In this document: positions 3-26,025 of the stretch, piece after piece
Layout of the letters: each line of letters starts with the position of its first letter
Position numbering within the stretch: position 1 is the first letter of the stretch
Assembly: GCA_965215505.1 (NCBI GenBank)
Contig: OZ244065.1
Location: forward strand, 5,403,218 to 5,435,217
Direction of reading: 5' to 3'
Length of the DNA: 32,000 nt
From: Capsulimonadaceae bacterium
GTDB taxonomy: Bacteria > Armatimonadota > Armatimonadia > Armatimonadales > Capsulimonadaceae
Made by a program: the position numbers and the translations under genes
Notes under the pieces: model-generated
Database searches by the model: none
What the model was told of the DNA's origin: nothing
The model's input: the letters and a program-made list of their open reading frames with translations, nothing else

Positions 3-2045
3 GCGGCACGGATCGTCACCCTCGCCTGCGCCGACCTGCGCGGCGGCACGGGGCATGATGTGTTCGCCGAATATGACGGCACCCTGAACGCGCTGGTCGC
101 ATGGAACGCCTCCTCACCCGATTGGGTGCGGGTCGTCGGCTGCTCGGACGCGCCGGATAGCTACGAGACGACGCTCGACTACGGCAAGGTGGTTTCCAAT
201 TCCGACCCTGGCGCGCTGTCCGACAAGACCGACGCGCCGACCGACCCGCTGGGCCTCTTCCGGCACACGCGCGAGATCGGGCCGGGCCTGACCGCCCGCT
301 TCTACTACCGACTGTCGTTCGGGGTAGGGCGGGATGAGGCCCTCGCGAACTACCGCGCCTGTCCGGACGCCGACGAATCGCTGGCTCTGACGAAGGCACA
401 CTATGACGAAGCCTTGTGCCGGTCCGTCCTGCTGACGCCGAACCCGCAGGTCAACCGGGGCGTCCTGTGGGCCAAGGCCAACATGATGCGGACGCTGGCA
501 AAAGCGCAGAAGGGCTGGGCCTTCGTCAACGACCCCACCCGCAGCAACAACAGCGTCGGGCGGGACACGGCCTGGTTCGCCTTCGGCGGCGACTACCTCA
601 ACCCCGCCTTCGTCCGCGAGTCGCTGCTGGCCTATGTCCACAACCAGGAGGACAGCGGCAAGGTCGTTGAGTATTACGACATCCGCACCGGCAAGACCGC
701 CGACTACGACCTGAACGTCAACGACAACACGCCGCTGCTGGTCCTGGCCTTGTGGCACCACTACAACACGACTGGCGATGAAGGTTTCCTGAAGGAGATC
801 TACCCCGCCGCCGCCAAGGCCGTGCGCTACCTGCTTTCCCAGCGCAATGACAAGGGCCTGGTCTGGTGTACGGCGACCGGGACGTCCGACTGGGGCATCA
901 TCGGGTGGCGCAACGTCATCACGAACTACCGCATTTCGGGCGCGAGTACCGAGGTCAACTCGGAGTGCCATGCCGCCCTGCTGACCGCCTCGCACATGGC
1001 GCGCGTCCTGGACAAACACGACGAGAGCGCGGAGTTCGCCGGAGAAGCCGAGGCGCTGAAAACCGCTATCAACACGCACTTGAAGAACCCCGGCAACGGT
1101 CTGTACTACTTGAACATTGACGTAGATGGGTTCCCGCGCTCCAACGTCACCTCCGACCTCGTGTTCCCGGTCATGTTCGGCGTCGCCGACGAGCAGACGT
1201 CCGCCCAGATCATCGGCCGGCTGTCCGACGCCGACTTCTGGACCGAGGCCGGCATCCGCACCACCCCGCGCGATGCCGCCGATTACGACCCCGATGGCAG
1301 CAACAACGGACCCTACGGGCTTTTGGGCGGCGTCTGGCTCGGCTGCTCCTTCTGGTTCGCCTTCGCCGCCGCCCGCTACAACCCCGAGTTCATGGACCGG
1401 GCTTTGTCCGACTCGTTCCAGAACTTCTCCACCGACCCGCGCCGCAACAACACCGTGCCCGGCCAGTTCTCCGAATGGCTTCACGGCGAAACCCTGACCA
1501 ACTCGGGCATGATGCTCTCCCCCTGGGACCCCCCGCGCTACCTGTGGGCCGCCGTCGAGGGCGTCGGCGGCGTGGACCCCTCCGGCAACGGCGTGACGCT
1601 CAAGCCGCGGCTCTCCAACGACTGGAAGTGGCTGGGCCTCCAAAACCTGCCTTACCGGGGCAAGCGTCTGACCTACTTCGCCGTCCGCACGCCCAATCTG
1701 ACGCTCTACGCCAACTTCCACCCGCAGCAGCTAGAGCCGTGTCAGGCTTATGACGACGATATCAGCGACCAGGTCAAAGCCGGCCTCGACTCGGTCGTCT
1801 CCCTGGGCCTGCGCTCCGGCGACCGCCTGGCCCTGTTCGCCGGCAATACGAGCGAGCAGACCGTCAACACCTCCCTGCGCGTCGGCGTCCCCCTGTCCGG
1901 CGCGTACCGGGCGCGCGTCTACGAGAGCCTGCTGGGCGAGTGGGCCGACCACGGCCTGATCCCCGCCGACCAGCTCACGCGCGGCCATATTTTGAAGATC
2001 GAGCGCAAAGGCTTCACCGTGCTGGAACTGACGCAGGAGGTGTAG
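3..2045 (+). CDS. six-hairpin (alpha/alpha)6 glycoside hydrolase, amylo-alpha-1,6-glucosidase / glycogen-debranching-like (GDE_C-type); probably 5'-partial
   Basis: The ORF track starts at GTG 60, but the same frame is stop-free back to nt 3, so the N-terminus probably lies off-window. GDE_C-like motifs seen by eye: VGRDTAWFAFGGDY, NDNTPLLVLALWHHYNTTGD, STEVNSECHAAL, FWTEAGIRTTPRD..DYDP, GPYGLLGGVWLG. Stop TAG at 2043-2045. Confidence 0.75.
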   Translation, partial: AARIVTLACADLRGGTGHDVFAEYDGTLNALVAWNASSPDWVRVVGCSDAPDSYETTLDYGKVVSNSDPGALSDKTDAPTDPLGLFRHTREIGPGLTARFYYRLSFGVGRDEALANYRACPDADESLALTKAHYDEALCRSVLLTPNPQVNRGVLWAKANMMRTLAKAQKGWAFVNDPTRSNNSVGRDTAWFAFGGDYLNPAFVRESLLAYVHNQEDSGKVVEYYDIRTGKTADYDLNVNDNTPLLVLALWHHYNTTGDEGFLKEIYPAAAKAVRYLLSQRNDKGLVWCTATGTSDWGIIGWRNVITNYRISGASTEVNSECHAALLTASHMARVLDKHDESAEFAGEAEALKTAINTHLKNPGNGLYYLNIDVDGFPRSNVTSDLVFPVMFGVADEQTSAQIIGRLSDADFWTEAGIRTTPRDAADYDPDGSNNGPYGLLGGVWLGCSFWFAFAAARYNPEFMDRALSDSFQNFSTDPRRNNTVPGQFSEWLHGETLTNSGMMLSPWDPPRYLWAAVEGVGGVDPSGNGVTLKPRLSNDWKWLGLQNLPYRGKRLTYFAVRTPNLTLYANFHPQQLEPCQAYDDDISDQVKAGLDSVVSLGLRSGDRLALFAGNTSEQTVNTSLRVGVPLSGAYRARVYESLLGEWADHGLIPADQLTRGHILKIERKGFTVLELTQEV

Positions 2046-2128
2046 GGGCGCGGCAAGATAAGGAGGGCGCGGCAAGCAGCGCCCCTACATCCTGCCCCGT
2101 AGGGGCGAACCTTGTGTTCGCCCTTCTT
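2042..2128. repeat. two GTAG-headed palindromic (REP-like) units
   Basis: Unit 1 runs 2042-2088: GTAGGGGCGC...GCGCCCCTAC, a 10-bp stem whose GTAG head overlaps the TAG stop of the upstream gene. Unit 2 runs 2095-2128: ccccGTAGGGGCGAACcttgtGTTCGCCCttctt. Unit 2 is a 34/34 match to the reverse complement of 24602-24635. Confidence 0.85.
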
Positions 2129-2293
2129 TCTCCGTGTTCGCCCTCTCCCTCATGTCTGCCCCTCTGCCCTCGTTCATCCAGCTTTCCATGCCATGCCGGC
2201 AGGAATAGCCATGCCGGCAGGAATAGTCCCGTTGCGCGTGTAACTACCACCCATCTTTCTCCCGTACTGGAAGTCAATGAGGATCACCCAATC

Positions 2294-4426
2294 TTGAAAA
2301 ACCCAGCCCTCCTCGGCGCGCTCCTGGCCGCCGCCGTTTGCACGACCACAGGCCCCGGCGCGCGCGCGGAAACCCCGGTCAAGGCACCCGCCTCGCACGC
2401 CCCCTACGCCGCCCCGGTCGCCCCGATGGAGGCGCGCATCAGCGCCCTTCTCGGGAAGATGACGCAGGACGAGAAACTCAGCCTGCTGGCCTTCACCGGC
2501 CCCGCCGACGCGATGCACCTCAACACGCCGCCGGTGACGCGGCTGGGCATCCCCGCGCTGCGGACCTGTGACGCGCCCGAGGGCGTGCGCGAGGGGGTTT
2601 CCACGAGCTTCCCGATGGGGATCGTCATGGCCTCGACCTGGAACCCCGCCCTGATCGGGCAGGTCGGCGAAGCCATTGGGCAGGAGGCGAAGGCGAAGAA
2701 CCGGCAGGTGATCTACGGGCCGTGCGTCAACATCCACCGGACGCCGCAGAGTGGGCGTGACTACGAGAACTACAGCGAGGACCCGTTCCTGACCGCGCGC
2801 CTGGCCGTCGGCTACATCGAGGGGATGCAGAGCCAGGGGGTGGCGGCCTGCGTCAAGCACTTCGCCTGCAACAACCAGGAGACGCACCGGCACGACATTG
2901 ACGTCTTGGTGGACGAGCGCGCCCTGCACGAGATCTACCTACCCGCGTTTGAAGCCTCCATCAACGAGGCGCACGTCTGGACCCTGATGCCCGCCTTCAA
3001 CCACGTCAACGGACTGTGGATGGCCGAGAACAAGCCGCTGCTGACGGACCTGGTGAAGAACAAATGGGACTGGGACGGCCTGGTCATCTCGGACTGGGGC
3101 GCGGTCCACGAGACGACCCCCGCCGCGAACGCCGGGACCGACATCGAGATGCCCAAGCCGGAGCTTTTCACGCCCGAGGCGCTGGCCTACTCTTTGAAGA
3201 AAGGGGAGATCACGCAGGCCATCATTGACGACAAGGTACGCCGCATCCTGCGGACACTGGCCCGGACCGGCGCGCTGGACCCGTCGAAGCCCGTGGACGC
3301 CAAAGTGGTTGATAGCCCGTGGCACCGACTACTAGCCAAGAAGGTCGCCCAGCAAGGCATCACGCTGCTGAAGAACGAGGGCGGCCTGCTGCCGCTGGAC
3401 CGGACCAAGGTCAAATCCATCGCCGTCATCGGCCCGAACGGGGCCGACACGCAGCTCGGGGGCCGGTGGAGCGCCGACGTGGTGCCGTCCTATACCGTCA
3501 CCGTGCTGGACGGCATCAAGAAGGAACTGCCCGCCGGGGCCGCCGTCACCTCCGCCCAGGGCTGCCCGCGCACCAGCCCCGGCTCGGCTGACGCCCTGCG
3601 CGACGCGGTCGCGCTGGCCGCAAAGTCCGACGTCGCCGTCGTCGTGGTCGGCATGGACAAGGATTACGAGGGGGAGGAGCTGGACCCGCCGAGCCTGTAC
3701 CTGCCGGGCGACCAGGATAAGCTGATCCAGGCGGTCAGCGCCGTCAACAAGAACACCATCGTTGTCTTGAACAACGGCAGCCCGATCCTGATGGACAAAT
3801 GGATCGGGAAGGTGCCCGGCCTGGTCGAGGCGTGGTATGCGGGCCAGGAAACCGGGACGGCGGTGGCGGAGATCCTGTTCGGCGACGTCAACCCGTCCGG
3901 CAAGCTGCCGGACACCCTGGCCTCGCGGCGCGAGGACTATTCGGACTGGGGCAACTACCCCGGAAACGGCACCACCGTGAACTACGCCGAGGGCCTCTAC
4001 GTCGGCTACCGGCACTTCGACCGGGACAAGATCGCCCCCCTGTTCCCATTCGGCTTCGGCCTGTCCTACACCACCTTCGGCTACAGCGGCCTGGCCGTAC
4101 CGAAGACCGTGGCACACGGGCGGACGGCGACGGTGCGCGTGACGGTGCAGAACACTGGCAAGCGCGCGGGCGACGAAGTCGCGCAGCTCTACATCCGCCC
4201 CCTCGCCTCCGCCGTCGCCCGGCCCGTCCGGGAGCTGAAAGGCTTCGCCCGCGTCACGCTCCAGCCCGGCGAAAAGGCCGTCCTCTCGTTCCCGCTGGAC
4301 ACCCGCGCATTCTCTTACTGGGATACGACCGCGCACGCCTGGCGTGCGGACCCCGGCACTTACGCGGTCGAGGTCGGTTCCTCATCCCGCGACCTGCGGG
4401 CACAGGGGGTCGTGAAACTACAGTAG
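2294..4426 (+). CDS. secreted glycoside hydrolase family 3 beta-glucosidase-like enzyme with C-terminal FnIII-like domain
   Basis: GH3 hallmarks: KMTQDEKLSLL, RLGIPAL, GRDYENYSEDPFL, KHFACNNQE, nucleophile context GLVISDWGAV, and a C-terminal ELKGFARVTLQPGEK module. Start placed at the in-frame TTG at 2294, which gives the signal peptide MKNPALLGALLAAAVCTTTGPGARA. The ORF-track start at 1940 would read through a repeat-filled intergenic region. The start is less certain than the gene call. Confidence 0.88.
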   Translation: MKNPALLGALLAAAVCTTTGPGARAETPVKAPASHAPYAAPVAPMEARISALLGKMTQDEKLSLLAFTGPADAMHLNTPPVTRLGIPALRTCDAPEGVREGVSTSFPMGIVMASTWNPALIGQVGEAIGQEAKAKNRQVIYGPCVNIHRTPQSGRDYENYSEDPFLTARLAVGYIEGMQSQGVAACVKHFACNNQETHRHDIDVLVDERALHEIYLPAFEASINEAHVWTLMPAFNHVNGLWMAENKPLLTDLVKNKWDWDGLVISDWGAVHETTPAANAGTDIEMPKPELFTPEALAYSLKKGEITQAIIDDKVRRILRTLARTGALDPSKPVDAKVVDSPWHRLLAKKVAQQGITLLKNEGGLLPLDRTKVKSIAVIGPNGADTQLGGRWSADVVPSYTVTVLDGIKKELPAGAAVTSAQGCPRTSPGSADALRDAVALAAKSDVAVVVVGMDKDYEGEELDPPSLYLPGDQDKLIQAVSAVNKNTIVVLNNGSPILMDKWIGKVPGLVEAWYAGQETGTAVAEILFGDVNPSGKLPDTLASRREDYSDWGNYPGNGTTVNYAEGLYVGYRHFDRDKIAPLFPFGFGLSYTTFGYSGLAVPKTVAHGRTATVRVTVQNTGKRAGDEVAQLYIRPLASAVARPVRELKGFARVTLQPGEKAVLSFPLDTRAFSYWDTTAHAWRADPGTYAVEVGSSSRDLRAQGVVKLQ

Positions 4427-4461: not shown

Positions 4462-6942
4462 TCAGCGCGCGAGGCGGAGGATGGTATACGAGTTCGCCGG
4501 GAAGGCGTAAGCGAACTTCGTGCCCGCCGTCCTGATCACTGCCTCGCGCGTGCGGGTCGTCTCCAGGCCGTCGGGCGGGTTGACGGCCTGCGGGTCCCCT
4601 GCTAAAGTCCACGCCTGCGCCGACGCCCGGCACCCCGCAAACCCTGCCAGGGAGAGGACCGTCCGGCGAGGCGCGGCACCGGGATTGACGACACTGAGGG
4701 TTAGTGTCTTCCCGTCCCGGCTGCGTGTCGCGGTCACGTCCAGATCGCCCCCGCCCTCAACGCTGCTCTGCACAAGCAGGGGCAGGCTGTTCCGGGACGC
4801 CATCTGCTGTGCGTAGTAAGGCGGCATGGCCCAGACATGGTCCGGTGTAAAGAATATCTGCCCCTGGTCCCATCCGTTGTCATTCTGCCGCCACGGCTGC
4901 AAGCAGTTCGCCGGGCAGTCTGCCAAGACGAAGTCCCCATGCCTTCGCACCGCGTTCAGTACGGAAGCATGGCCGAGGGCGCGCTGCATGTCGTGCAGGC
5001 TGCCGTTCTCCTCGAAGATGACGGCGTGCATGGCTGTCCCAAGAACCCACTCCTCGAACCTGCGCTGCATCCGTGTCAACTGCTCGTCAACACCCGCCCC
5101 GGAGCGCACATCGTCCGCCCCGACATGGAGGTCCCAGCAGGCACATTCGCCGTTGATCGCCTTGAACACCTTTTCCACACTGGGCGAGTCCGGACGCCAC
5201 CAGGCCGCGCAGACCAGATTGAGGCGGGAGTCCCGCCCGTGCATCGCTCTGGCGAGCTGCATGAACCGGTCGCTGTAGTGAGCGTAAGCCGCCGGGTCGT
5301 CTCCTCCGAGGACTTCCTCGTTGCCGATCTCGATATAGCGTACATGGTAAGGACGCGGGTGTCCGCCGTCGGCGCGCTTCTTCCCCCATACGGTTGTGGC
5401 GGGGCCATTCACATAATCTACGAGGTCCGCCGCGTCCTGCGGCGTTTCTTCCGCGTTGATGGCGAACGCCGACTCGATGCGGCCCGCCTCGCAGAAGTTC
5501 AGGAAGTCCACGATGCCGAAGCCGTTGGTCGAATACGGATACCAATGTCCCGCATAAGGCGGACGCCGGTCTGGTCCGCCGACCATGTTCTTCCAGCGGT
5601 AGCCGGGTGCGTTGACCATCGTGCCGCCGTAGCGCAGGAACGTCACACCTCCCCGGACTAAAGCATCGGCAATATCTGCGCGGATCGGCAGGCCGTGAAA
5701 TCGCTCTGCCCCGACCCCCATCAGCACCGCCTGGTCGGCCCAAAGAGTTCCGGGGCGGTCGATCCAGACAGCAAAGCGTGCGCTCCTATCCGAAGCGTCC
5801 GATGTCAAGGTGAACGGATACTTCGCCCAATCACCTGTGATGTGGCGGAAGGCACGCGCCGCATAAGTCCTCTTCCCATCCGCGCTCTGCAAAGCGACGG
5901 TGACGGGGCCTTGCAGACCCCGGGCGCGGAAGTAAATTCGTCCCGCGAAGGTCTGCCCCTGTTTGACGGCGATCCCCCAGCGATTCAAGCCCCGGTTGGC
6001 GATTCCCGCCCGGCCCGTTCCAGGCCCATGCTGTATGCGTTGGCAGTACGCCCCGTTAAACGGGCGGCTGTCGTCATGCAGGAAGTTTGCCGCCGCACCC
6101 CCCGTCTGGATGGCGTCCCACCGGCCGCTGACGGAATAACCCGGCAGCGCCTGGAACGGACTTTGGATCACGGCCCGCCCGGTCTGGATGCGTATGTTCT
6201 GATAGCCGGCCTCCGCATTCCAGGTACGCAGGGCCATCCTGCCGGTGAGGATGGGAGCGTCCGTGTCAGTGAAGTCAATGGAAGGGAGGGTGCTGCCCCC
6301 CTCAAAGATGCGTACCCTCGGGCCTTCCAGGACGACCCGCAGGTGATGCCATCGGCCCGCCTCGATGCGCGCCGCCACCGACTCCAGCGGCCGCCAGTCC
6401 TGCCGGTGCTTGCCCAGGATGAGCTGCTGGCTGCTCGCGCTCAGGCTGACCTCGTACCCGGTGAAACTGTCCGCGCCGACGGCGGGGTGCTGGACGCGCA
6501 CGAGCAGCCCGGCATTCCCTCCTCCCGTCCCTGGCATCTCGATGTCGGCCTCGACGGTCCCGTCCGCAAAGTCCGGCCCGTCCCACACCAGCTTCCCACC
6601 CGGATCGGCGGCGACCCGGCAGGCCCGCCCGTCCGCCCGCCACGCGCCGCCGTATGCCGTCCAGCCCGCGAAATTCGTTGCCGCCGGTGGCTCCTCAAAA
6701 CCCTCCCCGAACAGCTTCTGGTCGTACAGGCCGCCATAGATCTCGTGATTGACGTCCTCGATGCATGAACCGTATAGCCAGGGGGTGACGTGGTTGATGA
6801 CGTGCCCGGCGTCTACCATGATGTGGGTTTCCTGGCATCGAGCGGGGGCAGGGACAGCAAGCGCGGCAAACGCCAGGGCCGCGAGGCAAAAAACTTTAAC
6901 TGCCCACTCCCCTGCCGCCTCCTGACACGCGCTCCCCCTCAT
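4462..6942 (-). CDS. secreted GH51-like (alpha-L-arabinofuranosidase-like, clan GH-A) glycoside hydrolase with inserted DUF1080/LamG-like lectin module
   Basis: Signal peptide (..VKVFCLAALAFAALAVPAPA). GH51-type N-terminus LYGSCIEDVNHEIYGGLYDQ. Lectin-like insert GWTAYGGAWRADG...GYEVSLS...WHHLRVVLEG. Catalytic core FLRYGGTMVN, YIEIGNEE, VIFEENGS. C-terminal beta-sandwich PPYYAQQMASR...LDVTATRSRDGKTLTLSVVN...NSYTILRL. ATG 6942 overlaps the upstream stop (ATGA) and has GGGAG about 6 nt upstream. Confidence 0.85.
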   Translation of the reverse strand: MRGSACQEAAGEWAVKVFCLAALAFAALAVPAPARCQETHIMVDAGHVINHVTPWLYGSCIEDVNHEIYGGLYDQKLFGEGFEEPPAATNFAGWTAYGGAWRADGRACRVAADPGGKLVWDGPDFADGTVEADIEMPGTGGGNAGLLVRVQHPAVGADSFTGYEVSLSASSQQLILGKHRQDWRPLESVAARIEAGRWHHLRVVLEGPRVRIFEGGSTLPSIDFTDTDAPILTGRMALRTWNAEAGYQNIRIQTGRAVIQSPFQALPGYSVSGRWDAIQTGGAAANFLHDDSRPFNGAYCQRIQHGPGTGRAGIANRGLNRWGIAVKQGQTFAGRIYFRARGLQGPVTVALQSADGKRTYAARAFRHITGDWAKYPFTLTSDASDRSARFAVWIDRPGTLWADQAVLMGVGAERFHGLPIRADIADALVRGGVTFLRYGGTMVNAPGYRWKNMVGGPDRRPPYAGHWYPYSTNGFGIVDFLNFCEAGRIESAFAINAEETPQDAADLVDYVNGPATTVWGKKRADGGHPRPYHVRYIEIGNEEVLGGDDPAAYAHYSDRFMQLARAMHGRDSRLNLVCAAWWRPDSPSVEKVFKAINGECACWDLHVGADDVRSGAGVDEQLTRMQRRFEEWVLGTAMHAVIFEENGSLHDMQRALGHASVLNAVRRHGDFVLADCPANCLQPWRQNDNGWDQGQIFFTPDHVWAMPPYYAQQMASRNSLPLLVQSSVEGGGDLDVTATRSRDGKTLTLSVVNPGAAPRRTVLSLAGFAGCRASAQAWTLAGDPQAVNPPDGLETTRTREAVIRTAGTKFAYAFPANSYTILRLAR

Positions 6943-8519
6943 GGTTCCGCTCCCTGCTGGAGATCATTCGGCTGCGCCCATGGGGCGGTCCGCAGAACGG
7001 CCCGCATGGCGTCCGGCGTCATGCCCAGCTTATCCGCATTGGTCACCACGTCGCCGAGGTCTACGCCGTACCAGTTACGCTTGTGCGGGTCGGCCAGCCC
7101 GGCGACGTTCAGGCAGGCGATCTCGTCCGCGACCTGGGCACTGAAGCCGGGCCCCGCCGCTCCCCGCCGGACCCGCGCTGCCGCACACCGCAGGTTAGGC
7201 CCAAATTCAGCGTGGCCGGAGGCCAGGAAGCGGGTAACGAGGTGGGGTCGTTCCAACCGCCGGGCCATCTCGCTGTAGCTGGCCGCCGCGAAGTAGAACT
7301 GCGACAGGGCGGCGAAGATGGGGAAACGCGGCATGGCCGCGTAGCAGGCCCCGATGAAGTCCGCCGTCGCGTCCGCCTCTTGCAGTGTCAGTGCGCCGTA
7401 CTCCGCAAGCCTCGTCCCTAGCGTCTCCGTGTCCCAAGTTTCCTCGAAAATGCGCCCCAGGCGCTCGACGCCAAGCAGGGTGAGTGGAATGCCGGTGCTG
7501 AACAGCGGGTCCACGAAGGCCGCCGCCGAGGGCAGCAGCGCCCAACCCGACCCGGCGGCGGTGGGCGCGCGGTATGCGATTCGGGGCGTGTGGGTGAAGG
7601 GCCGCATCGGCACGGCCTCGGCGAACTGCGCGCCAACGGACGGGAATCGTGCCAGGAATCGACACCAGGCTGGCTCGCCTTCCGCTAGGTTTAGCTCTGC
7701 CGCCAGCGCACCCGTGACGGCGATGCCCGCACTCGTGACACCCGTGTCAAAGCGCAGTATCCACATCCATCCGCCCTCAAAGACATGATGCACGGCGGCA
7801 TCGTCGGCGGGGTAGGGGGGCGTGTCTGGATGCGAGAACTCCGGCATCGTGTCGCACCGCCGGACGCCGGCGAAGTGGGAGTAGAGGCTCTGCGTGGCCG
7901 GGTATTCGGCGAAGCCGGCTTCGGGCAGGCCGAGCGCCCTGCTCAGAAACCCGCGTGGCCCCGTCGCATCTATGACCAGCCGCGTCCGCACGGCGAACGC
8001 CTCCCCGGCTCGCTCCCCGGCCACCGTCGCCGTGCCGTCGCCGTGCCACACGGGCGCTGTCAGCGTCACCCCGTCCCAATACTCCGCCCCGACGCCGACC
8101 GCCTCACCCACCAGGAACTCATCCACATCGGCCCGCAGCCAGTGCGTGTCCGCCGCCTCATCGTGCGGGCTGGCCGCGACCATGAGCTGGTCGCTCCGGT
8201 CCGGCGTAGCCCGAAATGCCTGCCCCTGCTCGTGGTGGAAATAAGTAAAACCGCGCTTCAGCCCACAGCCGACATGTGGGTAGGCGCGCTGCCACGGCCC
8301 ATACGCGGACAGCGGCAGCAGGCGGGGGAGGTCATAGCGCGTGGCGAGCTGTTCCAGAAGCAGGTTCGCGAGCGGGGAAGTAGACTCGCCGATGGCGAAG
8401 CGCGGGTGTTTGCCCTTTTCGAGCAGTAGCACGGACAGGCCGATGCGGCGGGCGACCATCGCCAATAGCGAGCCGCCGTAGCCGGAGCCGATGATCGTCA
8501 GGTCATAGTCGGTGTTCAT
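6939..8519 (-). CDS. FAD-dependent oxidoreductase of the flavin-dependent halogenase / geranylgeranyl-reductase-like superfamily
   Basis: N-terminal dinucleotide fold DLTIIGSGYGGSLLA..LLLEKGKHPRFAIGEST.P, as in PltA/CmlS-type halogenases. Partial WxWxIP-type motif EGGWMWILRF. Lies 13 nt downstream of the radical SAM stop. Confidence 0.8.
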   Translation of the reverse strand: MNTDYDLTIIGSGYGGSLLAMVARRIGLSVLLLEKGKHPRFAIGESTSPLANLLLEQLATRYDLPRLLPLSAYGPWQRAYPHVGCGLKRGFTYFHHEQGQAFRATPDRSDQLMVAASPHDEAADTHWLRADVDEFLVGEAVGVGAEYWDGVTLTAPVWHGDGTATVAGERAGEAFAVRTRLVIDATGPRGFLSRALGLPEAGFAEYPATQSLYSHFAGVRRCDTMPEFSHPDTPPYPADDAAVHHVFEGGWMWILRFDTGVTSAGIAVTGALAAELNLAEGEPAWCRFLARFPSVGAQFAEAVPMRPFTHTPRIAYRAPTAAGSGWALLPSAAAFVDPLFSTGIPLTLLGVERLGRIFEETWDTETLGTRLAEYGALTLQEADATADFIGACYAAMPRFPIFAALSQFYFAAASYSEMARRLERPHLVTRFLASGHAEFGPNLRCAAARVRRGAAGPGFSAQVADEIACLNVAGLADPHKRNWYGVDLGDVVTNADKLGMTPDAMRAVLRTAPWAQPNDLQQGAEP

Positions 8520-8532
8520 GGCGCGCGCCGTT

Positions 8533-9573
8533 CTAATTAAGCCTTCGTACAGAAGGGCGGGGGCCCTCCCCTACGCCGCCCGTGTAGGGGCGCGATTCAT
8601 CGCGCCCTCTTGTCTCATCTTCCGCCTGTTCACACTCCGCGCATACCACCAGCGGTGGCACCTGCTGCGTCCGGTTCATCCCGGCCAGCCGCGCCGCGCG
8701 GGCTGGGGAGCAGGCGCAGGTGTAAAACTTCTCGATGTCCCACAGGTCGGCGAAGACGCAGCCCCGTTTTAGCCCAAGGCCGTATTCCTGCACCGCTTCC
8801 AGCGAGGGCAGGGTCGGCGGGGAGTAGTCGCCCGAGGCGGCCAGCGCCTCCATCGCGCCGTTCCCGGCCCGTGTCGGGATGACGCAGCAGACGGACGCGC
8901 CGCCTTCAAAGGCAGCGTCGAGGGAGCGTTTGGCCCAAATGATGCCCTCGGCTTCGGTCAGGAACGGGGGGCGCAGGAGCAGGAAGACGCGCAGGGCGAT
9001 GTCATTATCGGCAAGGAAGGCCGCCGCGCGCTCAAAGTCCGCGACGGTGAACCGCTTGTTCAGCCGGGCCAGGACGTCCGGGTGAACCGTTTCCAGGCCG
9101 ACGGCGACTTCCAGACGCGCGGCCAGCAGATCACGGAAGCGCAGGCAGTGGTCGCCCAGCAGGGCGGGATGGCACTCGACGACCACGCGCTCGAAGCCGC
9201 GCACGGCCTCGGCGATCTCGGCGTAGTCTTCGGGCGGGACGGCCTGCGGGTCGAAGAAGCTGCCCGCGTTGTAGAGCTTGACCTGCCGCGCAGGCGGCAG
9301 CCGGTCGAGCGCATAACGGATTTGCGCGGCGATGGCCCCGCTCGGGACGCGGGTGTCCAGCGTGTTCTGCCATAGATCGCACATCAGGCACCGGTACGGG
9401 CACTCGCGGTTCGTCAGGAAGACCGTCGCCGTCGGGATGGTTCCCCCCAAAGGCCCCGCCTCCTCCTCCCACAAGAAGGCGTAGGAACGCATCGGGTCGA
9501 GCGCGTTCTTCGGGCCGCGCCTCCCAACAATCCAGCGGGTGCGCTCGCTCGGGGAGGCAGGATAGGCGGTCAT
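8533..9573 (-). CDS. radical SAM enzyme (Elp3-like / TIGR01210-RaSEA-like by eye)
   Basis: CxxxCxxC cluster motif in FLTNRECPYRCLMCDLW. KLYNAGSFFDPQAVPPED resembles the SGSFLD motif of the TIGR01210-type group. Start moved to ATG 9573, which forms an ATGA overlap with the upstream AsnB-like stop. The ORF-track start at 9705 would overlap that gene by 136 nt. The C-terminal tail (..RGRDESRPYTGGVGEG..) is translated from a REP-like repeat. Confidence 0.85.
   Translation of the reverse strand: MTAYPASPSERTRWIVGRRGPKNALDPMRSYAFLWEEEAGPLGGTIPTATVFLTNRECPYRCLMCDLWQNTLDTRVPSGAIAAQIRYALDRLPPARQVKLYNAGSFFDPQAVPPEDYAEIAEAVRGFERVVVECHPALLGDHCLRFRDLLAARLEVAVGLETVHPDVLARLNKRFTVADFERAAAFLADNDIALRVFLLLRPPFLTEAEGIIWAKRSLDAAFEGGASVCCVIPTRAGNGAMEALAASGDYSPPTLPSLEAVQEYGLGLKRGCVFADLWDIEKFYTCACSPARAARLAGMNRTQQVPPLVVCAECEQAEDETRGRDESRPYTGGVGEGPRPSVRRLN
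8568..8607. repeat. GTAG-headed palindromic (REP-like) unit
   Basis: CCCCTAC(8568-8574)...GTAGGGGCGCGAttcaTCGCGCCC (8584-8607). Overlaps the 3' end of the radical SAM ORF. Confidence 0.7.
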
Positions 9574-10982
9574 CGGGCGACGGGGAACGGGCGCGACAGG
9601 TCGTTGCCGGAGAAGCGCTCGCCGGCCGGGTCCCATGCTTCGCGCAGGCGGTCCTGCCACTGGCGCAGGAAGACCGACCGGCACCACGCCTTGCTGACGC
9701 GCCACTTGCGGTAGGTGTCGCCGCCTGCCCCGTTTACGTCCCCGCCGACGCCGTCCTGGAACCGGCGCTTGGGCGGGGTGGGCATTGTGATCCCGGTCAC
9801 GGCTAAGACGCCTGCACGGACGATGTCGGCCTTCAAAGTGTACAGCCGCTCGACGCTGCCGTCTAATATCTCCTCGAAGGGAATAGCGAGCGAGGCGGCC
9901 AGGGCCGCCCGGTCGGTGTAGGGGGAGAAAGCATCAAAGCCGAAGTGCTGCCCCGGCGCGTAGGTGCGGACGTAGGAGCGCGACAGGCCGCCCGAGTAGG
10001 TCAGGCTGTGCTTGATGGCGTCCACGCCCCAGCCCTCCTGGTACAGCAAGGGGTTCCGCAGGACGCTGGACAGGGTCAGATCGGAGTCCTCCAGCGGGTA
10101 GTCCTTCAGGTTTTCGTCGCCGCCGTCGCCGTCGAGCAGGTACTTCATCGCCGGGTAGCGGTCGCGGATGCCGCGCAGGAGGCACAGGGCGACGGCGGCG
10201 CACTCGACATCTAAGGGATGGTAGTCCTCGATGACTTGGATGGCTTCTTCCATGTCAACTGACTCGGCACTTGCCTTGACGACTTCCCACTGGCCCGCCA
10301 GCCCCAGTTCACGCACGATGCCTTCGGCCTGGGCGGCGTCCTGGCCGCCGCCGAGGTCCAGGGTGAAGCCGCGGACCATGTCCGGGTCACGGCCCATCAG
10401 CGTCAGGGCGTGGCGGGCCAGCAGGAAGACCGAAGTGCTGTCCACGCCGCCCGAAAAGGCCAGCCCGATCGGCTCGCCCTCGGGGATCGTGCCGAGCCAG
10501 CGCGTCAAGGCTTCCAGGGCCGCCGCGACGTAGGCCGCGCCCAGGGCTTCCACGTCGGCGGGACCCGTGCCGATGGCGGGGTGGAAGAACCGGTGGTAGC
10601 GCGGGGCCGGGTCGGGGCAGCCGATCTGGTCTATCTCGATCAGGTAGTGGGCGGGCACCATGCGCGTGTAGAGCGGGTCGAACTGCCACCCGATCTTCTC
10701 CGAGCGGCACCACTCGAACAGCGAGTCGATGCGGTCCGAGGCGATCAGGAACGGCCCGTGGAACATCTTGGCGACGAAGTAGCGCAGGGGGGCGCCGACC
10801 GTGCGCGCCATCCGCACCGTCTGCCCGTCGCGGGCCGTGGCCGCGAAATGTCCCTGCGCCCGGCCCAAAGTCTCTACATCGCCCGCCCGCACCGCCTCAG
10901 TCAACTGCGTCGGCGTCAAGGCCGGCATCGCGGACTGCTGTGGGCCGACCAGGTCCACCAAACGCTCCACACCTAATAACAT
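9570..10982 (-). CDS. asparagine synthetase B-like ATP-pyrophosphatase (adenylating) enzyme lacking the N-terminal Cys glutaminase nucleophile (beta-lactam-synthetase/lasso-cyclase-like architecture)
   Basis: PP-loop LAFSGGVDSTSVF and AsnB-like LLDGDGGDENLKDY. The N-terminus is MLLGVERL.., not the MCG.. start of glutaminase-active AsnB. A degenerate Ntn-like segment follows (GHFAATARDGQTVRMARTVGAPLRYF..IASDRIDSL). GGAG lies about 10 nt upstream of ATG 10982. Confidence 0.85.
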   Translation of the reverse strand: MLLGVERLVDLVGPQQSAMPALTPTQLTEAVRAGDVETLGRAQGHFAATARDGQTVRMARTVGAPLRYFVAKMFHGPFLIASDRIDSLFEWCRSEKIGWQFDPLYTRMVPAHYLIEIDQIGCPDPAPRYHRFFHPAIGTGPADVEALGAAYVAAALEALTRWLGTIPEGEPIGLAFSGGVDSTSVFLLARHALTLMGRDPDMVRGFTLDLGGGQDAAQAEGIVRELGLAGQWEVVKASAESVDMEEAIQVIEDYHPLDVECAAVALCLLRGIRDRYPAMKYLLDGDGGDENLKDYPLEDSDLTLSSVLRNPLLYQEGWGVDAIKHSLTYSGGLSRSYVRTYAPGQHFGFDAFSPYTDRAALAASLAIPFEEILDGSVERLYTLKADIVRAGVLAVTGITMPTPPKRRFQDGVGGDVNGAGGDTYRKWRVSKAWCRSVFLRQWQDRLREAWDPAGERFSGNDLSRPFPVAR

Positions 10983-11023
10983 TGGAAGGTCTCCATCCTA
11001 ACGGGACGATAATGATAGGCTTG

Positions 11024-11052
11024 ATTATACCTGCACGGACCGGCTATTTGAC
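11024..11052 (-). promoter_or_regulatory. promoter candidate for the AsnB-like/rSAM/flavoprotein/GH51 operon
   Basis: Minus-strand TATAAT (plus-strand attata at 11024-11029), about 42 nt upstream of ATG 10982. The -35 is weak: GTCAAA at 17-nt spacing (11047-11052). Confidence 0.3.
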
Positions 11053-11065
11053 CGACGATGCGGGC

Positions 11066-11386
11066 CTAGACGGTCAGCCCGGCCAGCGGGTTCCCACCAG
11101 CGGTGGGCGGGGCAACCGCTGTGACGCTGTCGGAGTCCTGGCTGATGCGCCCAATCGCCGCCACCGTCTTGTTCAGTGACGCGCCCGCAATGGGCGGGGC
11201 CGCGCCCGGCGGCAGCGGCATCTTTTCCGCCGCCACTGTCAGCGCGACCTCCCCCTCGGGTGGCCTGACGGCGGCCAGCGCGGCGGCGAGTGTGAGCGGC
11301 TTGACGGGTGCAGCCTCCTGGGCCGGGGCCGCCAGTGGGAGGAAGGCCAGGACCGGCAGCAAGGGGGCGAAGCGGGCAAGGGCCAT
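11066..11386 (-). CDS. small (106 aa) Ala/Pro-rich secreted protein, unknown function
   Basis: ATG 11386 is preceded by a perfect AGGAGG 7 nt upstream; this SD overlaps the TAA stop of the cyclase gene (ttAGGAGGtcttccATG). Signal-peptide-like MALARFAPLLPVLAFLPLAAPAQE. The composition is low-complexity and I recognise no family. The longer ORF-track version (start 11533) overlaps the cyclase gene. Confidence 0.5.
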   Translation of the reverse strand: MALARFAPLLPVLAFLPLAAPAQEAAPVKPLTLAAALAAVRPPEGEVALTVAAEKMPLPPGAAPPIAGASLNKTVAAIGRISQDSDSVTAVAPPTAGGNPLAGLTV

Positions 11387-11396: not shown

Positions 11397-13337
11397 CTAA
11401 GAAGCGGGCGGCGCTTGGAACCGGCGCACATGATAGGTGGGCAGGCTGCCGAAGTCGCGGGCCAGGTCGAGCGTGCCGATGTACTCGCAGGCGAAGGCGG
11501 GCCGCCACTCCCGCCCCGCCTGTCGGGCCTCATGGGCGGCGGCCTGCTGCTCCGCCGTCAGCAGGGCGGCGAACTGCTCCGAGGCGTAGATGTTGCCCGG
11601 AACCGTGACCGGCTCGATGCGGGCCGCCCGGTTGACGTGCGAGCCGTAGTAGTTGAGCGCGCCGGTGATCGGGTCTATCCCCTCGAAGACCGGCCCGGCG
11701 TGCAGGCCGATGCGGATGCTCATCTCGCGCGGCAGGCCGTACTCGGCCCAGTCGGTGTCGCAGACGACCTCCTGGAGCGCCAGGGCGTATTCGGCCAGCC
11801 GGGTGGCGTCGTCCATCAGGACGAAGATGGCGTCCCCCCAGGTGTTGACGAACCCGTCCGTCGGCGGCAGGCTCCCCGCCACGCGCTCCAGGAAGCTGAA
11901 CATGAAGGCCGGCATCCGGTCCTCCTGGAGCTGGCTGTAGCCGACCACGTCGGCGAAAAGCAGCGTCTTGACCTGACGGCGGATCGCGGCTTCGGTGCGC
12001 GGGGCGTGTGGCTGCGGAAGGTGCGGGGCGGGCGTGACGCCGGGCTGAGACGGGGGGCCGAGCGGGATGACGCGGCGGCGGGCTGGGTCGGGCCAGCCCG
12101 CCACCAGGTCGGCCGTCCCGCCTGCCAATGCGCTCTCCCGGCCGTCCCAGACCGCCAGCAGGACGGGGGCGGCCCCCAGCGGCTGGGCGGCCAGCGTCGC
12201 GTACCCGAGCAGCATCCGGCCCATCCAGGCGAAGAGGCTGTCATCGCCCTGCACCGACTCTTCACTGAGGTACTTGACCGAGGCGGCCCGCCCCAGCGCC
12301 GCCTCGAAACGGGCGACCCACTGCGGGCCGGCATAGCGGACGCTGGCGTCGAGGAAATCAGCCGGGGAATAGGGCAGCACGAGATGGACCTCGGCACCGC
12401 GCGCCTGCATCGCCTCGATGAACAGCAGGTCCGACCCGCAGGCCGCCGAGCAGTAGCCGATCCGGGCGTCCGTCTCCTCCAGGTGCCGGACGATCTCGGC
12501 CCGCACGGCCTCTTCCTGGGACTCGGGGAATCGCGGGACGGCTCGGCCCGGTCGGTCCAGCATGTGGCCGACGAACACCAGTACGGCGGGAGGCGTCATC
12601 ATCTGAAGGAGCGGGTCGGGGACGGGGAACCCGTGGGCGGCCAGGAGTTGGAGCTGCCGGCGGGAGGCGGCGACGGCCCCGTAGCGCCGCCCCGCCAGCG
12701 AGGCGGCGCGCGCGTAAGCCGCCTGCGCTTCCGCCCCCCGGCCGAGCAGCAGGAATGCCTCGCCGCGCGTCGCCCAATGCCAGTACCGGTCGGCTTCGGA
12801 ACCGGGAGCGGCCTGCCCGGTGGCCTCCAGCACCGACCCGGCGAGCCGAGCCGCCTGCGCCCGGTCGCCGACGATCCAGGACAGCGTCGCGGCATTGATG
12901 CCGGTCCAGGAGCCGCCCGACGCCTCGAACCCGCGCCCGTAGGCGTCGCGGGCGCATCGGGCGTCCTCCACCCGCCCCGAACGACGCCACACGTCCTTGT
13001 AGACGCGGGCGATCAGCCCCAGCGTCTCCTCGTCCGCCTCCGCCCCATGGCGCAGGGGCACGCTGTCCCTCCGCATCGGCGCGGGGTAGAGGTCTTCCAG
13101 AACGCCCTGGGCCTCCGCCAGTGCGCCCGCGCGCAGCAGGGCCAGGGCGGTCGCCTGACGCAGCCGCGCGCTGTCCGGGAACCGGCGCAGCGCCTTCTGC
13201 GCCAGGTCGTGCGCCCTAAACGTCTGGCCCTGGTCGAGCATCGTCCGGACCGCCGCCTCGGCCTCCGCCTGGGAAGAAGGAAAGTCGGGCGGCTGCGGCG
13301 AACGGGGATCTAGCGACTGGCTGGGAAGTAAAGGCAT
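11397..13337 (-). CDS. multidomain signalling protein: DUF4071-type (MAP3K TRAFs-binding-like) TPR region + SLOG/LOG-like Rossmannoid module + class III nucleotidyl cyclase domain
   Basis: N-terminal region: EETLGLIARVYKDVWRR and GFEASGGSWTGINAATLSWI, which are DUF4071 signatures as I remember them. Middle region: VLVFVGHMLD..GYCSAACGSDLLFIEA..EVHLVLPY..LLAVWDG..LAGGTADLV. C-terminal region is the class III cyclase: VKTLLFADVVGYSQL, NTWGDAIFVL, IRIGLHAGPV, YYGSHVNRAARIE. Start moved to ATG 13337 (GGAG 6-7 nt upstream), because the 13338-13799 extension overlaps the RyR gene on the other strand. Confidence 0.9.
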   Translation of the reverse strand: MPLLPSQSLDPRSPQPPDFPSSQAEAEAAVRTMLDQGQTFRAHDLAQKALRRFPDSARLRQATALALLRAGALAEAQGVLEDLYPAPMRRDSVPLRHGAEADEETLGLIARVYKDVWRRSGRVEDARCARDAYGRGFEASGGSWTGINAATLSWIVGDRAQAARLAGSVLEATGQAAPGSEADRYWHWATRGEAFLLLGRGAEAQAAYARAASLAGRRYGAVAASRRQLQLLAAHGFPVPDPLLQMMTPPAVLVFVGHMLDRPGRAVPRFPESQEEAVRAEIVRHLEETDARIGYCSAACGSDLLFIEAMQARGAEVHLVLPYSPADFLDASVRYAGPQWVARFEAALGRAASVKYLSEESVQGDDSLFAWMGRMLLGYATLAAQPLGAAPVLLAVWDGRESALAGGTADLVAGWPDPARRRVIPLGPPSQPGVTPAPHLPQPHAPRTEAAIRRQVKTLLFADVVGYSQLQEDRMPAFMFSFLERVAGSLPPTDGFVNTWGDAIFVLMDDATRLAEYALALQEVVCDTDWAEYGLPREMSIRIGLHAGPVFEGIDPITGALNYYGSHVNRAARIEPVTVPGNIYASEQFAALLTAEQQAAAHEARQAGREWRPAFACEYIGTLDLARDFGSLPTYHVRRFQAPPAS

Positions 13338-13376
13338 TCGGTTCTCCGCGCCCGCGAGAATGAGTACAGCAATAGT

Positions 13377-13715
13377 ATGACTGCAAGACCGGAAAAACGC
13401 AAGGCCGCTTTCTCCAAGGCAGCACAGTATGTGCCGGCCCCGCGCGACACCTCCGCCGTCCACCTCACCGCCGAGATGAGCGCCCTGACGGAAGACCTGG
13501 CGAAGAACACGCACGAAGTCTGGGCGGCCCAGCGCATGGCCGAGGGCTGGCGCTACGGGCCGTGCCGGGATGAGGAGCGCATGGAACACCCCGGACTCGT
13601 CCCCTACGAGGACCTGCCCGACTCGGAGAAGGAGTACGACCGCAGCACCGCCCTGGAGACCCTGCGGCTGATCCTCGCCCTGGGCTACAGCATCTGCCGC
13701 GCCGACCCCCCGTGA
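13377..13715 (+). CDS. RyR (ryanodine-receptor repeat) domain protein, 112 aa
   Basis: Close by-eye match to the bacterial RyR domain pattern: LTEDLAKNTHEVWAAQRMAEGWRYGPCRDEERMEHPGLVPYEDLPDSEKEYDRSTALETLRLILALGYSI. There is no clear SD at ATG 13377, so an internal start (MSALTEDL) is possible. Confidence 0.85.
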   Translation: MTARPEKRKAAFSKAAQYVPAPRDTSAVHLTAEMSALTEDLAKNTHEVWAAQRMAEGWRYGPCRDEERMEHPGLVPYEDLPDSEKEYDRSTALETLRLILALGYSICRADPP

Positions 13716-13741
13716 TACCCCCAGGATGAACGCCTGGGCGT

Positions 13742-13781
13742 GAAACATGTCACACCCGGTGCGATGTTTCTGCTGTATAAT
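13742..13781 (+). promoter_or_regulatory. -10 element (TATAAT) with an adjacent 7-bp inverted repeat, upstream of the heme/HAMP sensor gene
   Basis: Perfect TATAAT at 13776-13781, 24 nt before ATG 13805. GAAACAT (13742-13748) and ATGTTTC (13764-13770) form an inverted repeat covering the -35 region. No TTGACA-like -35 is present. Confidence 0.4.
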
Positions 13782-13804
13782 GTACCGGAAGAGAAACACA
13801 TCCC

Positions 13805-14683
13805 ATGAACATCCTCGCCAAGTTCAACCTGATGATGGTGACCGTCTTCACGCTCGGGCTGATCGCCGTGTGCCTAGTGACGAACTCGCTGCTCGAAGGC
13901 AACGCCCAGCAGCAGGTCGTGGACAACGCGCGCATCATGATGGAGACCGCCCTCGCGATGCGCCAGTACACCAGCAAGCAGATCAAGCCGCTGCTCGACG
14001 GCCAGAACGTACACGGGTTCCTGCCGCAGACCGTGCCCGCCTATGCGGCCACGCAGGGATTTAATGCATTACGCGAGAAGTACCCCCAGTACACCTACAA
14101 AGAGGCGACGCTCGACCCAACCAACGTCCTGCAAGACAAGGCGACGGACTGGGAGGCGGACGTCGTCAGCCAGTTCAAAAACCAGGGGGAGACCAAGGAG
14201 ATCATCGGCATCCGGCAGAGCGCGACCGGTCCGTCGCTCTACCTGAGCCACCCCATTCGGATCACCGACGCCGCCTGCCTGACCTGCCACAGCACGCCGG
14301 CCGTCGCCCCCGCCTCCATGATCCAGAAGTACGGGCCGGACCACGGGTTCAACTGGCACCAGGGCGACGTGGTCGGGGCGCAGATCGTCTCGGTCCCGAT
14401 GTCGCTGCCCGAGGCCATGGCCCGGCGAGCCTTTCTGGCCGTACTCGGGTCGCTCGTCGCCGCCTTCGCCGTCACCCTGCTCCTGCTCAACGTCATGCTG
14501 ACCCTGCTCGTCATCCGCCCGGTCACACGACTCGCGCGGGTCGCCGACCAGATCAGCCAGGGGAGCCGCGAGGTGGAGGACCTCCCGGTCCGGGGGCATG
14601 ACGAGATCGCCGGGCTGGCCGTGTCCTTCAACCGGATGCAGCGCTCACTCAAGAAGGCCATGACGATGCTGGATGAGGTGTAG
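13805..14683 (+). CDS. membrane sensor: TM - extracytoplasmic DUF3365/Tll0287-like c-type heme domain (CxxCH) - TM - HAMP, with no output domain
   Basis: TM1 is MMVTVFTLGLIAVCLV. DUF3365-like TALAMRQYTSKQIKPLL..FLPQTVPAYAAT. Heme-c motif C-L-T-C-H encoded at 14276-14290. TM2 is FLAVLGSLVAAFAVTLLLLNVMLTLLV. HAMP is IRPVTRLARVADQIS..DEIAGLAVSFNRMQRSL. The protein ends about 10 residues after the HAMP domain. Confidence 0.9.
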   Translation: MNILAKFNLMMVTVFTLGLIAVCLVTNSLLEGNAQQQVVDNARIMMETALAMRQYTSKQIKPLLDGQNVHGFLPQTVPAYAATQGFNALREKYPQYTYKEATLDPTNVLQDKATDWEADVVSQFKNQGETKEIIGIRQSATGPSLYLSHPIRITDAACLTCHSTPAVAPASMIQKYGPDHGFNWHQGDVVGAQIVSVPMSLPEAMARRAFLAVLGSLVAAFAVTLLLLNVMLTLLVIRPVTRLARVADQISQGSREVEDLPVRGHDEIAGLAVSFNRMQRSLKKAMTMLDEV

Positions 14684-14691
14684 GGGGGAAG

Positions 14692-17986: not shown

Positions 17987-17989
17987 CCC

Positions 17990-22680: not shown

Positions 22681-22722
22681 CGGGCGGGTGCCCGACGTGA
22701 GTGGAGGGACGGCGGCTTTGCC

Positions 22723-23553: not shown

Positions 23554-23563
23554 AGGGTGCCTC

Positions 23564-25996: not shown

Positions 25997-26025
25997 GCTC
26001 CTTTAGTTCGAGAGGCGCACTGATA

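Follow-up and report, generated by a model that had tools for sequence, protein, structure and literature searches.

The 32,000-nucleotide stretch of a Capsulimonadaceae bacterium genome analyzed here (contig OZ244065.1, positions 5,403,218 to 5,435,217 of the forward strand; G+C content of about 67%; hereafter, the window) contains a compact cluster of enzyme genes that is the subject of this report. Reading of the open reading frames (ORFs) delineates four adjoining minus-strand genes that jointly span positions 4462-10982 of the window. In the direction of transcription, these encode an AsnB-like ligase (9570-10982, 470 amino acids), a radical S-adenosylmethionine enzyme, hereafter rSAM (8533-9573, 346 amino acids counted from the ATG at 9573), a protein of the flavin-dependent halogenase family (6939-8519, 526 amino acids), and a multidomain glycosidase resembling glycoside hydrolase (GH) family 51 (4462-6942, 826 amino acids counted from an upstream ATG). 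The stop codon of the ligase gene and the start codon of the rSAM gene overlap in an ATGA at 9570-9573 (cccgATGAccgc, read directly on the minus strand), a minus-strand spacer of 13 nt (8520-8532) separates the rSAM stop codon from the halogenase ATG, and a second minus-strand ATGA, at 6939-6942 ('ccATGAggggg'), joins the halogenase gene to the GH51-like gene, an overlap that presupposes translation from the upstream ATG; GGGAG is located 9-13 nt upstream of that ATG. A preliminary description of this DNA, made from the nucleotide sequence, had listed the four genes in series, both overlaps, the 13-nt gap, the GGGAG as an internal Shine-Dalgarno sequence and, in the encoded proteins, the SGGVDS, CPYRCLMC, HPRFAIGES and GGWMWILRF motifs along with the lack of an N-terminal cysteine in the AsnB-like protein; all these features were recovered on re-reading.

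One genome per GTDB species was scanned with an alignment of nine ligase sequences as the query, at least 568 stretches encoding relatives of the ligase were confirmed, and the best 80 of these loci were classified in detail. The ligase, rSAM and halogenase genes are found on one strand and in the same order in 59 of the 80 loci (59 of the 73 that are not cut by a contig end), the ligase-rSAM pair only in six, and the ligase gene alone in eight; the remaining seven are cut by a contig end. Judging by the record titles, about 44 of the 80 loci come from Acidobacteriota, 13 from Armatimonadota (including Abditibacteriaceae), 11 from Verrucomicrobiota and 3 from Planctomycetota, and the remaining few are metagenome-assembled genomes (MAGs) with other or no phylum label. 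Across phyla, the ligase is 49-72% identical to its window counterpart, the rSAM mostly 50-70% and the halogenase mostly 44-65%, and the 4-nt overlap of ligase stop and rSAM start is the commonest junction between these genes, with at least 25 occurrences among 71 related loci. The shared order, the cross-phylum identity and the prevalence of this overlap identify the trio as a conserved functional unit, with the ligase-rSAM pair at its core and a halogenase that often completes it. The recurrence of the three enzymes together in at least four phyla bears out the compact enzyme cassette of the preliminary description. The distribution is patchy, with less than 1% of species representatives carrying the trio, which was probably spread among soil phyla by horizontal transfer. 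Cultured carriers are Capsulimonas corticalis and Acidobacterium sp. S8, and Singulisphaera sp. PoT has the pair alone. A survey of the literature on the enzyme combinations, on TIGR01210, on ASPIC/UnbV together with rSAM and on halogenases of Acidobacteria found no description of the trio, which looks like an uncharacterized, widely conserved combination of known superfamilies; its fixed order and frequent coupling are maintained in hundreds of species of phyla that dominate soil and are hard to culture.

The neighbors of the ligase gene in the ligase-alone loci include genes for a SASA esterase, restriction-modification proteins, a short-chain dehydrogenase/reductase (SDR)/epimerase and a GFO/IDH/MocA oxidoreductase, and no consistent alternative partner was found among them. 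Two apparent gene fusions were discarded: the 761 amino acid P0201, which resembled a ligase-rSAM fusion, is a frameshifted read-through, and the 945 amino acid ORF in locus L080 results from over-extension of the halogenase reading frame, which is not the frame of the rSAM gene.

The ligase consists of a degenerate N-terminal domain of the N-terminal nucleophile (Ntn) type and a PP-loop synthetase domain, in which SGGVDS occupies residues 177-182. In an alignment of 18 diverse members of the family, G178, G179 and D181 are invariant, and S177 and S182 are nearly so. The Pfam family Asn_synthase (PF00733) matches the ligase with 47.7 bits (cut-off 21) over residues 170-304 only, and the NCBIfam model for AsnB, TIGR01536, yields 40.5 bits, far from its cut-off of 267.1, with a match confined to residues 170-295. 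Residue 2 is leucine rather than cysteine, and the Cys2 nucleophile is present in none of the 18 aligned members. In the AlphaFold2 (AF2) model of the ligase, with a predicted local distance difference test (pLDDT) score of 80.7, the best Foldseek match is beta-lactam synthetase (1mc1/1jgt; E 5e-12, TM 0.56, about 470 columns), followed by AsnB (1ct9), the carbapenam synthetase CarA (1q15) and TsnB9 (7ylz). By its PF00733 score, PP-loop and modeled fold, the protein is predicted to be a PP-loop adenylating enzyme of the AsnB fold. The missing Cys2 and the TIGR01536 score indicate that it is not a glutamine-dependent asparagine synthetase, in agreement with the preliminary description, where the AsnB-like protein had been called glutaminase-less. 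Without glutamine hydrolysis, the ligase must use ammonia or an amine as the nucleophile. The family forms a compact group, with a search of 1.8 billion cluster representatives yielding 599 related clusters (50% identity); annotation pipelines label the protein merely 'asparagine synthase', no curated NCBIfam family was found for it, and a tblastn search of PLSDB yielded no match on plasmids.

A distant clade of ligases, about 30-35% identical to the window protein, is represented by 16 proteins from the homologue search, one of them annotated as candidate phyla radiation, and by a single weak locus from the metagenome scan. In this clade (L088, L089 and L090, the last from a Kerfeldbacteria MAG), neither an rSAM nor a halogenase gene was seen, and in the three contexts inspected, the ligase gene lies next to a divergently transcribed gene for a TrmB-family regulator. 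The clade was considered as a clue to the trio and proved uninformative, the ligase gene standing alone.

In the rSAM, the CxxxCxxC motif (C58/C62/C65, within CPYRCLMC) is invariant among 44 family sequences, which also share a C-terminal CxC...CxxC arrangement and a core of about 315 amino acids. The longest ORF opens at a GTG at 9705; the ATG at 9573 is supported as the start by homologues of about 320 amino acids that align from residues 1-4 of the 346-residue version. The Pfam radical SAM family (PF04055) scores 24.1, slightly under its cut-off of 29.5, and the AF2 model (pLDDT 91.3) resembles the radical SAM barrels of Elp3, MiaB/MtaB, PFL-AE and LipA, so that cluster motif and modeled fold together place the protein in the radical SAM superfamily. 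The best match for all 44 family members is TIGR01210 (RaSEA), every one under the cut-off of 212, at roughly half that score: the window protein reaches 104 bits over model positions 2-238 of 313, which leaves the final 75 positions of the model unmatched. TIGR01212 (MnmL/YtqA) is also matched by 13 of the 44 (best E 7e-07). On these scores, and with an AsnB-like partner instead of ArcS, the protein does not appear to be RaSEA; no gene for a tRNA-guanine transglycosylase (TGT) or for an ArcS-like protein was found in any locus examined, and the Joint Genome Institute (JGI) labels some members of the family 'archaeosine synthase beta-subunit'. The C-terminal tail is not conserved and its residues 335-346 have pLDDT below 50; in the close relative L092, 98% identical, it differs by 17-nt and 1-nt indels (346 versus 339 amino acids), and the length of the 13-nt spacer hinges on this tail. 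The segment that encodes it (8533-8625, minus strand) can form two G+C-rich hairpins, including the palindrome GGGCGCGA-TGAA-TCGCGCCC, with a fold energy not significantly different from that of shuffled sequences (z = -1.3).

The halogenase contains GxGxxG, HPRFAIGES, K88, W251xW253xLR and FVDPLFSTG motifs and matches Pfam Trp_halogenase (PF04820) with 51 bits (cut-off 21). Its matches in the Protein Data Bank (PDB) include PltM (6bzt, 6.7e-47) and the tetracycline 7-halogenase CtcP (7xgb, 1.1e-45). K88 aligns with the lysine of the PltM motif 'CGIKLGF', which we take to be the catalytic lysine of PltM. This residue, which the preliminary description had singled out for alignment, is invariant in all 52 family members compared, as are W251 and W253; G11 and G13 occur in every one of the 51 members for which the respective column is occupied, and G16 in 49. 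The GxGxxG motif, the family-level match and the position of the catalytic lysine argue for membership in the flavin-dependent halogenase family, with halogenating activity as a prediction. A weak NCBIfam match to QhpG, named a flavin-dependent monooxygenase, was also obtained (47.5 bits), and no curated NCBIfam family was found for the halogenase clade.

In the fourth protein, a putative signal peptide is accompanied by a DUF1080/3-keto-disaccharide-hydrolase-like domain, a weak match to the carbohydrate-binding module (CBM) 4/9, a GH51 catalytic region and an arabinofuranosidase C-terminal domain. Its assignment follows from the Pfam scores (ASD1_dom, 48.1 with a cut-off of 22.2; Alpha-L-AF_C, 45.4 with a cut-off of 27; 3keto-disac_hyd, above cut-off) and from a GNE motif within 'EIGNEEV' (IGNEE), which point to GH51 catalytic and C-terminal domains; NCBIfam ArfA scores 88.6 (cut-off 625). 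The preliminary description had suggested that this protein, translationally coupled to the other three, could be their substrate or partner. Comparison with other genomes does not support that proposal: a GH51-like gene adjoins the trio in none of the 80 species-representative loci, nor in the closer relatives, where the halogenase gene is followed by other genes. With ligases 93%, 90%, 82% and 77% identical to that of the window, these relatives have, respectively, a convergent GH3 gene 3 nt past the halogenase stop codon (L091), a gene for an unrelated 966 amino acid protein (L084), a convergent GH2 gene (L086) and a convergent FG-GAP gene (L001, Capsulimonas corticalis). The sole other context with the GH51-like gene is L092, with 98% nucleotide identity and an identical junction. 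The overlap at 6939-6942 itself depends on a start codon whose possible reassignment the preliminary description had listed among the grounds for refutation. In the gene call deposited for L092 (10773-13130 of that record), the start is indeed placed 41 codons downstream, which gives a 785 amino acid protein, a 119-nt gap and no ATGA overlap, and drops the signal-peptide-like N-terminus. We favor the upstream ATG as the probable start because it is the sole in-frame one that takes in the hydrophobic, signal-like stretch VKVFCLAALAFAALAVPAPA. The GH51-like gene is a strain-specific passenger outside the conserved cassette, its coupling being probably incidental; it belongs with the surrounding glycoside hydrolase genes (GH3, MGH1-like, GH43, GH39) and is best left out of hypotheses on the cassette.

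These surroundings, at 60-4426 and 16937-29234 of the window, are dense in genes for carbohydrate use (MGH1-like hydrolase, GH3, GH43 and GH39) and also hold genes for S41 and M42 peptidases and two binding-protein-dependent ATP-binding cassette (ABC) transporters of the sugar type. Trio loci of other Armatimonadota are flanked by GH2, rhamnosidase, GH39, GH43 and GH106 genes; the glycoside hydrolases beside the trio in this phylum may simply reflect hydrolase-rich genomes.

Elsewhere (L010, L011, L013, L015, L027-L074 and others), the trio sits among genes for secreted CRTAC1-like proteins with FG-GAP and UnbV_ASPIC domains, which comprise two short orthologue groups of about 600 amino acids and a form of about 1150 amino acids that bears N-terminal tetratricopeptide repeats (TPR). 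In Acidobacteriota, Verrucomicrobiota and Planctomycetota, the same island includes genes for a 288 amino acid RnfD/NqrB-like membrane protein and an SsuA-type ABC transporter.

Several searches addressed the surroundings of the enzymes. Among ORFs of 18-130 amino acids in the 80 loci, no conserved small ORF was detected within 700 nt on either side of the trio; clusters of seemingly conserved small ORFs turned out to be alternative-frame translations of a convergent CRTAC1-like gene. Pfam and NCBIfam reveal no leader-peptide-recognition, peptidase or SPASM domain in the three enzymes, and the neighbors scanned contain no transglutaminase-like or PqqD-like domain such as would mark the setting of a lasso cyclase. 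The elements that define a cluster for peptides synthesized on the ribosome and modified after translation (RiPPs), namely, a precursor together with a recognition or leader-processing element, are thus not found near the trio, and a precursor encoded elsewhere is conceivable. Clavulanate or carbapenem genes were found neither in the window nor in about 90 related loci, PADLOC returned no defense system match for the three enzymes, and Rfam found no riboswitch or other RNA in the whole window.

Each of the three enzymes has characterized relatives, and the comparison with these delimits the chemistry that can be proposed. RaSEA, which takes part in archaeosine synthesis in Euryarchaeota, converts preQ0-Lys to the archaeosine amidine and is active only in complex with ArcS, for which the nitrogen donor is lysine rather than NH4+, Asn or Gln (PMC11298593). 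As in that system, where nitrogen comes from lysine, the radical enzyme trims the donor and the two proteins form an obligate complex, the trio pairs an rSAM of the same sequence neighborhood with an enzyme expected to attach a nitrogen-bearing group, and here the partner is glutaminase-less and the genes are translationally coupled. The differences are substantial: the partner is an ATP-dependent ligase of the AsnB fold and is not TGT-like as ArcS is, the cassette is carried by bacteria, preQ0 and TGT genes are missing from its vicinity, the window rSAM scores less than half of the RaSEA cut-off, and the trio rSAM family has a Cys-rich C-terminus of its own. The second-best rSAM family, MnmL/YtqA/YhcC (TIGR01212), also employs radical C-N cleavage, removing an amino-acid-derived carboxymethyl group: MnmL/YhcC strips it from cmnm5s2U (bioRxiv 10.64898/2026.05.18.725915) and converts cmnm5U to nm5U. 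The similarity to the trio rSAM is weak, however, and MnmL, a tRNA-acting enzyme, is partnered by neither a ligase nor a halogenase.

The ligase shares the two-domain AsnB fold, the dead N-terminal domain and PP-loop adenylation with beta-lactam and carbapenam synthetases, TsnB9, PesC, TsrC, ScdTA and lasso cyclases, from which formation of an acyl-adenylate and then of an amide or lactam would be expected. Unlike in these enzymes, its N-terminal domain is shorter, at about 135 amino acids; the structural alignments show 12-19% identity, and the trio lacks a clavulanate, carbapenem, thiopeptide or lasso context (B protein, recognition element and precursor). Over residues 4-359, the halogenase matches PltM and CtcP with E values of about 1e-46 and conserves GxGxxG, the catalytic lysine position, both tryptophans and FxDPxFSxG, but its tryptophan motif ends in L followed by R, Q or K, its C-terminal approximately 170 residues are unrelated to PltM, and the trio cluster contains neither pyoluteorin or tetracycline genes nor a flavin reductase. 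A parallel in overall logic is offered by PylB-PylC-PylD, where a radical SAM enzyme, an ATP-dependent amide ligase and an oxidoreductase make a specialized molecule from primary amino acids with no scaffold synthase; no homology is implied, PylC being an ATP-grasp enzyme and PylD an NAD-dependent dehydrogenase.

Taken as a whole, the trio most likely makes or tailors a small molecule. Our working interpretation, to which we assign a probability of roughly 0.4, is that ligase, rSAM and halogenase constitute a self-contained cassette that yields a small molecule by a mechanism involving N-dealkylation, with the GH51-like gene as a passenger. The ligase would adenylate a substrate carboxylate at the PP-loop site and couple it to an amine, either that of an amino acid serving as the nitrogen donor or one within the substrate, to form an N-substituted amide or a lactam. 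The translationally coupled rSAM would then abstract a hydrogen next to that nitrogen and cleave or rearrange the adduct, which would unmask a primary amide or amine; N-dealkylation is proposed because both characterized relatives, RaSEA and MnmL/YhcC, carry out radical N-dealkylation. Finally, the halogenase would use FADH2, O2 and halide to halogenate, via Lys88, an electron-rich aromatic ring, a step that is likely optional and late given that some genomes carry the ligase-rSAM pair only. The absence of a scaffold synthase suggests that the substrate comes from primary metabolism. A more specific proposal, drawn by analogy and in our estimate rather improbable, is that the pair is a bacterial small-molecule counterpart of ArcS-RaSEA in which an amino acid (for instance, lysine or glycine) serves as an ammonia surrogate and radical C-N trimming, along with the linked halogenase, leads to a halogenated amide metabolite or cofactor-like molecule that would be widespread in soil Acidobacteriota, Verrucomicrobiota, Armatimonadota and Planctomycetota and would have escaped detection so far. 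If correct, this would be the first use outside tRNA of nitrogen installation by attaching an amino acid and then trimming it, and it would explain how an AsnB homologue can dispense with its glutaminase. Should the halogenase be active, soil bacteria would commonly make an organohalogen that has been overlooked. The cassette lends itself to direct testing because it is small (three genes, about 4 kb) and present in cultured strains.

Several observations weigh against this interpretation. The N-dealkylation role is borrowed from families that exclude the window rSAM (104 bits versus 212), and RaSEA and MnmL both act on tRNA rather than on small molecules. Free ammonia could be the nitrogen donor without any rSAM step, and in 8 of the 80 loci the ligase gene has neither an rSAM nor a halogenase gene nearby. 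In the halogenase, WxWxL(R/Q/K) stands in place of the canonical WxWxIP, and proline is present in only 2 of the 52 members. Neither a polyketide synthase (PKS), a nonribosomal peptide synthetase (NRPS) or a prenyltransferase nor a substrate or product was identified anywhere near the cassette, and the neighborhood of CRTAC1-like, membrane and SsuA-importer genes in other phyla is left unexplained by a small-molecule model.

This neighborhood is the starting point of an alternative in which the cassette is part of a larger envelope or transport module and either processes an imported compound, in salvage or catabolism, or supplies a molecule to the secreted beta-propeller proteins, the window strain having kept the cytoplasmic enzymes only. 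Of the 83 loci searched, 48-50 have CRTAC1-like genes no farther than 7 kb from the trio, 34 have the 288 amino acid membrane protein, and 20-24 have an ABC ATPase and an SsuA-like binding protein; one CRTAC1-like orthologue group (about 58-84%) and the membrane protein (57-90%) maintain high cross-phylum identity to the reference, module genes and trio are co-directional with short or overlapping junctions in Blastocatellia (L010, L011 and L013), and Capsulimonas (L001) also has module genes nearby. Nevertheless, we consider such a module unlikely: its genes are absent from the 32-kb window and from Chthonomonas-type loci, where the trio is intact, and elsewhere vary in position and orientation relative to it, some chance adjacency is expected given how numerous FG-GAP/UnbV proteins are in these phyla, and a sulfonate-type importer has no evident chemical link to the trio enzymes. 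The nearest relatives of the rSAM raise another alternative, namely, that the ligase-rSAM pair modifies an RNA nucleoside, as an analogue of ArcS-RaSEA or MnmE/G-MnmL, with the PP-loop enzyme activating the carboxylate of a nucleobase side chain and the rSAM trimming the attached amino acid. Both the nearest sequence families (RaSEA and MnmL/YtqA) and the structural matches Elp3 and MiaB/MtaB act on tRNA, PP-loop ATPases are common among RNA-modification enzymes, some genomes carry the pair without the halogenase, and some family members bear the JGI archaeosine synthase label mentioned above. However, we know of no AsnB-fold enzyme that modifies RNA, and a halogenase of the PltM/CtcP type that retains its catalytic lysine is without precedent in RNA modification, yet is linked to the pair in 59 of the 73 untruncated loci; furthermore, the patchy spread combined with high cross-phylum identity suits an accessory, transferred trait rather than a part of the translation apparatus, and there are no TGT or other tRNA-modification genes nearby. 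A role in RNA modification accordingly seems a long shot to us.

The idea of the preliminary description that the trio modifies a peptide or protein, be it the GH51-like protein or another adjacent secreted protein, by chemistry akin to that of RiPPs or protein-derived cofactors, has precedent in AsnB-like enzymes that act on peptides, such as TsrC and ScdTA, which amidate C-termini, and PesC, which forms nitriles (PMC13060819), as well as in the lasso cyclases. The weak QhpG match of the flavoprotein and the frequency of large secreted proteins beside the trio (GH51-like, CRTAC1-like and a lineage-specific protein of about 900 amino acids) would also fit. Still, it appears distinctly improbable, considering that no flanking protein is conserved across lineages, the GH51-like gene being unique to the lineage of the window strain, that a small conserved ORF within 700 nt and leader-recognition, peptidase and SPASM domains in the trio enzymes are all missing, and that the N-termini of the inspected flanking proteins are of the Sec or lipoprotein type, so that these proteins would undergo export in the unfolded state, away from the cytoplasmic trio enzymes; moreover, the window copy of the gene for the approximately 900 amino acid protein is deleted and the trio is intact. 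Chance adjacency of three unrelated housekeeping enzymes could be invoked since each belongs to a large, functionally diverse superfamily and the ligase is annotated as a plain asparagine synthase, but this explanation is effectively refuted by co-occurrence: 59 of the 80 loci, spread over several phyla, keep order and orientation, and stop codons overlap with start codons. The ligase also speaks against it, lacking the cysteine for glutamine-dependent asparagine synthesis and scoring far under the AsnB equivalog cut-off.

The gene for the approximately 900 amino acid secreted protein precedes the ligase gene in close relatives, where it is intact (L092, 3826-6531; L091, 5267-7939, each in the numbering of its own locus), and survives in the window as a remnant of 103 codons at 11066-11377, on the minus strand. 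The remnant shares 77-82% identity with the N-termini of the 901 amino acid (L092) and 890 amino acid (L091) proteins, and the window lacks the segment corresponding to L092 4111-6482, a deletion of about 2.4 kb. In L084, a homologue 35-39% identical is encoded downstream of the halogenase. For this lineage-specific protein, Pfam returns no match even at E 0.1; the small secreted ORF at 11066-11377, considered as a candidate precursor peptide, was rejected as the remnant of the deleted gene. In the window strain, the transcription unit probably starts between this remnant and the ligase gene, in the region 10983-11065 (minus strand, read by eye), which contains a TATAAT hexamer (11024-11029) and, some 10 nt ahead of the ligase ATG, GGAG. 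A consensus promoter scan did not call this hexamer for want of a good -35 hexamer, and the yield of the promoter and terminator scans was no better than chance.

Farther upstream, at 11397-16793, a block of signaling genes lies between the trio and the genes for the M42 peptidase, GH43 and GH39. It encodes a protein with TPR-S and adenylate/guanylate cyclase domains, a Tll0287-like/HAMP protein, an EAL phosphodiesterase and a TIR-domain protein with weak PADLOC TIR matches, and includes a 112 amino acid ORF (13377-13715); in L091 and L092, a RyR domain is found in the corresponding proteins. Both of these relatives possess the block, which is absent in L084, where the trio directly abuts the M42 peptidase gene.

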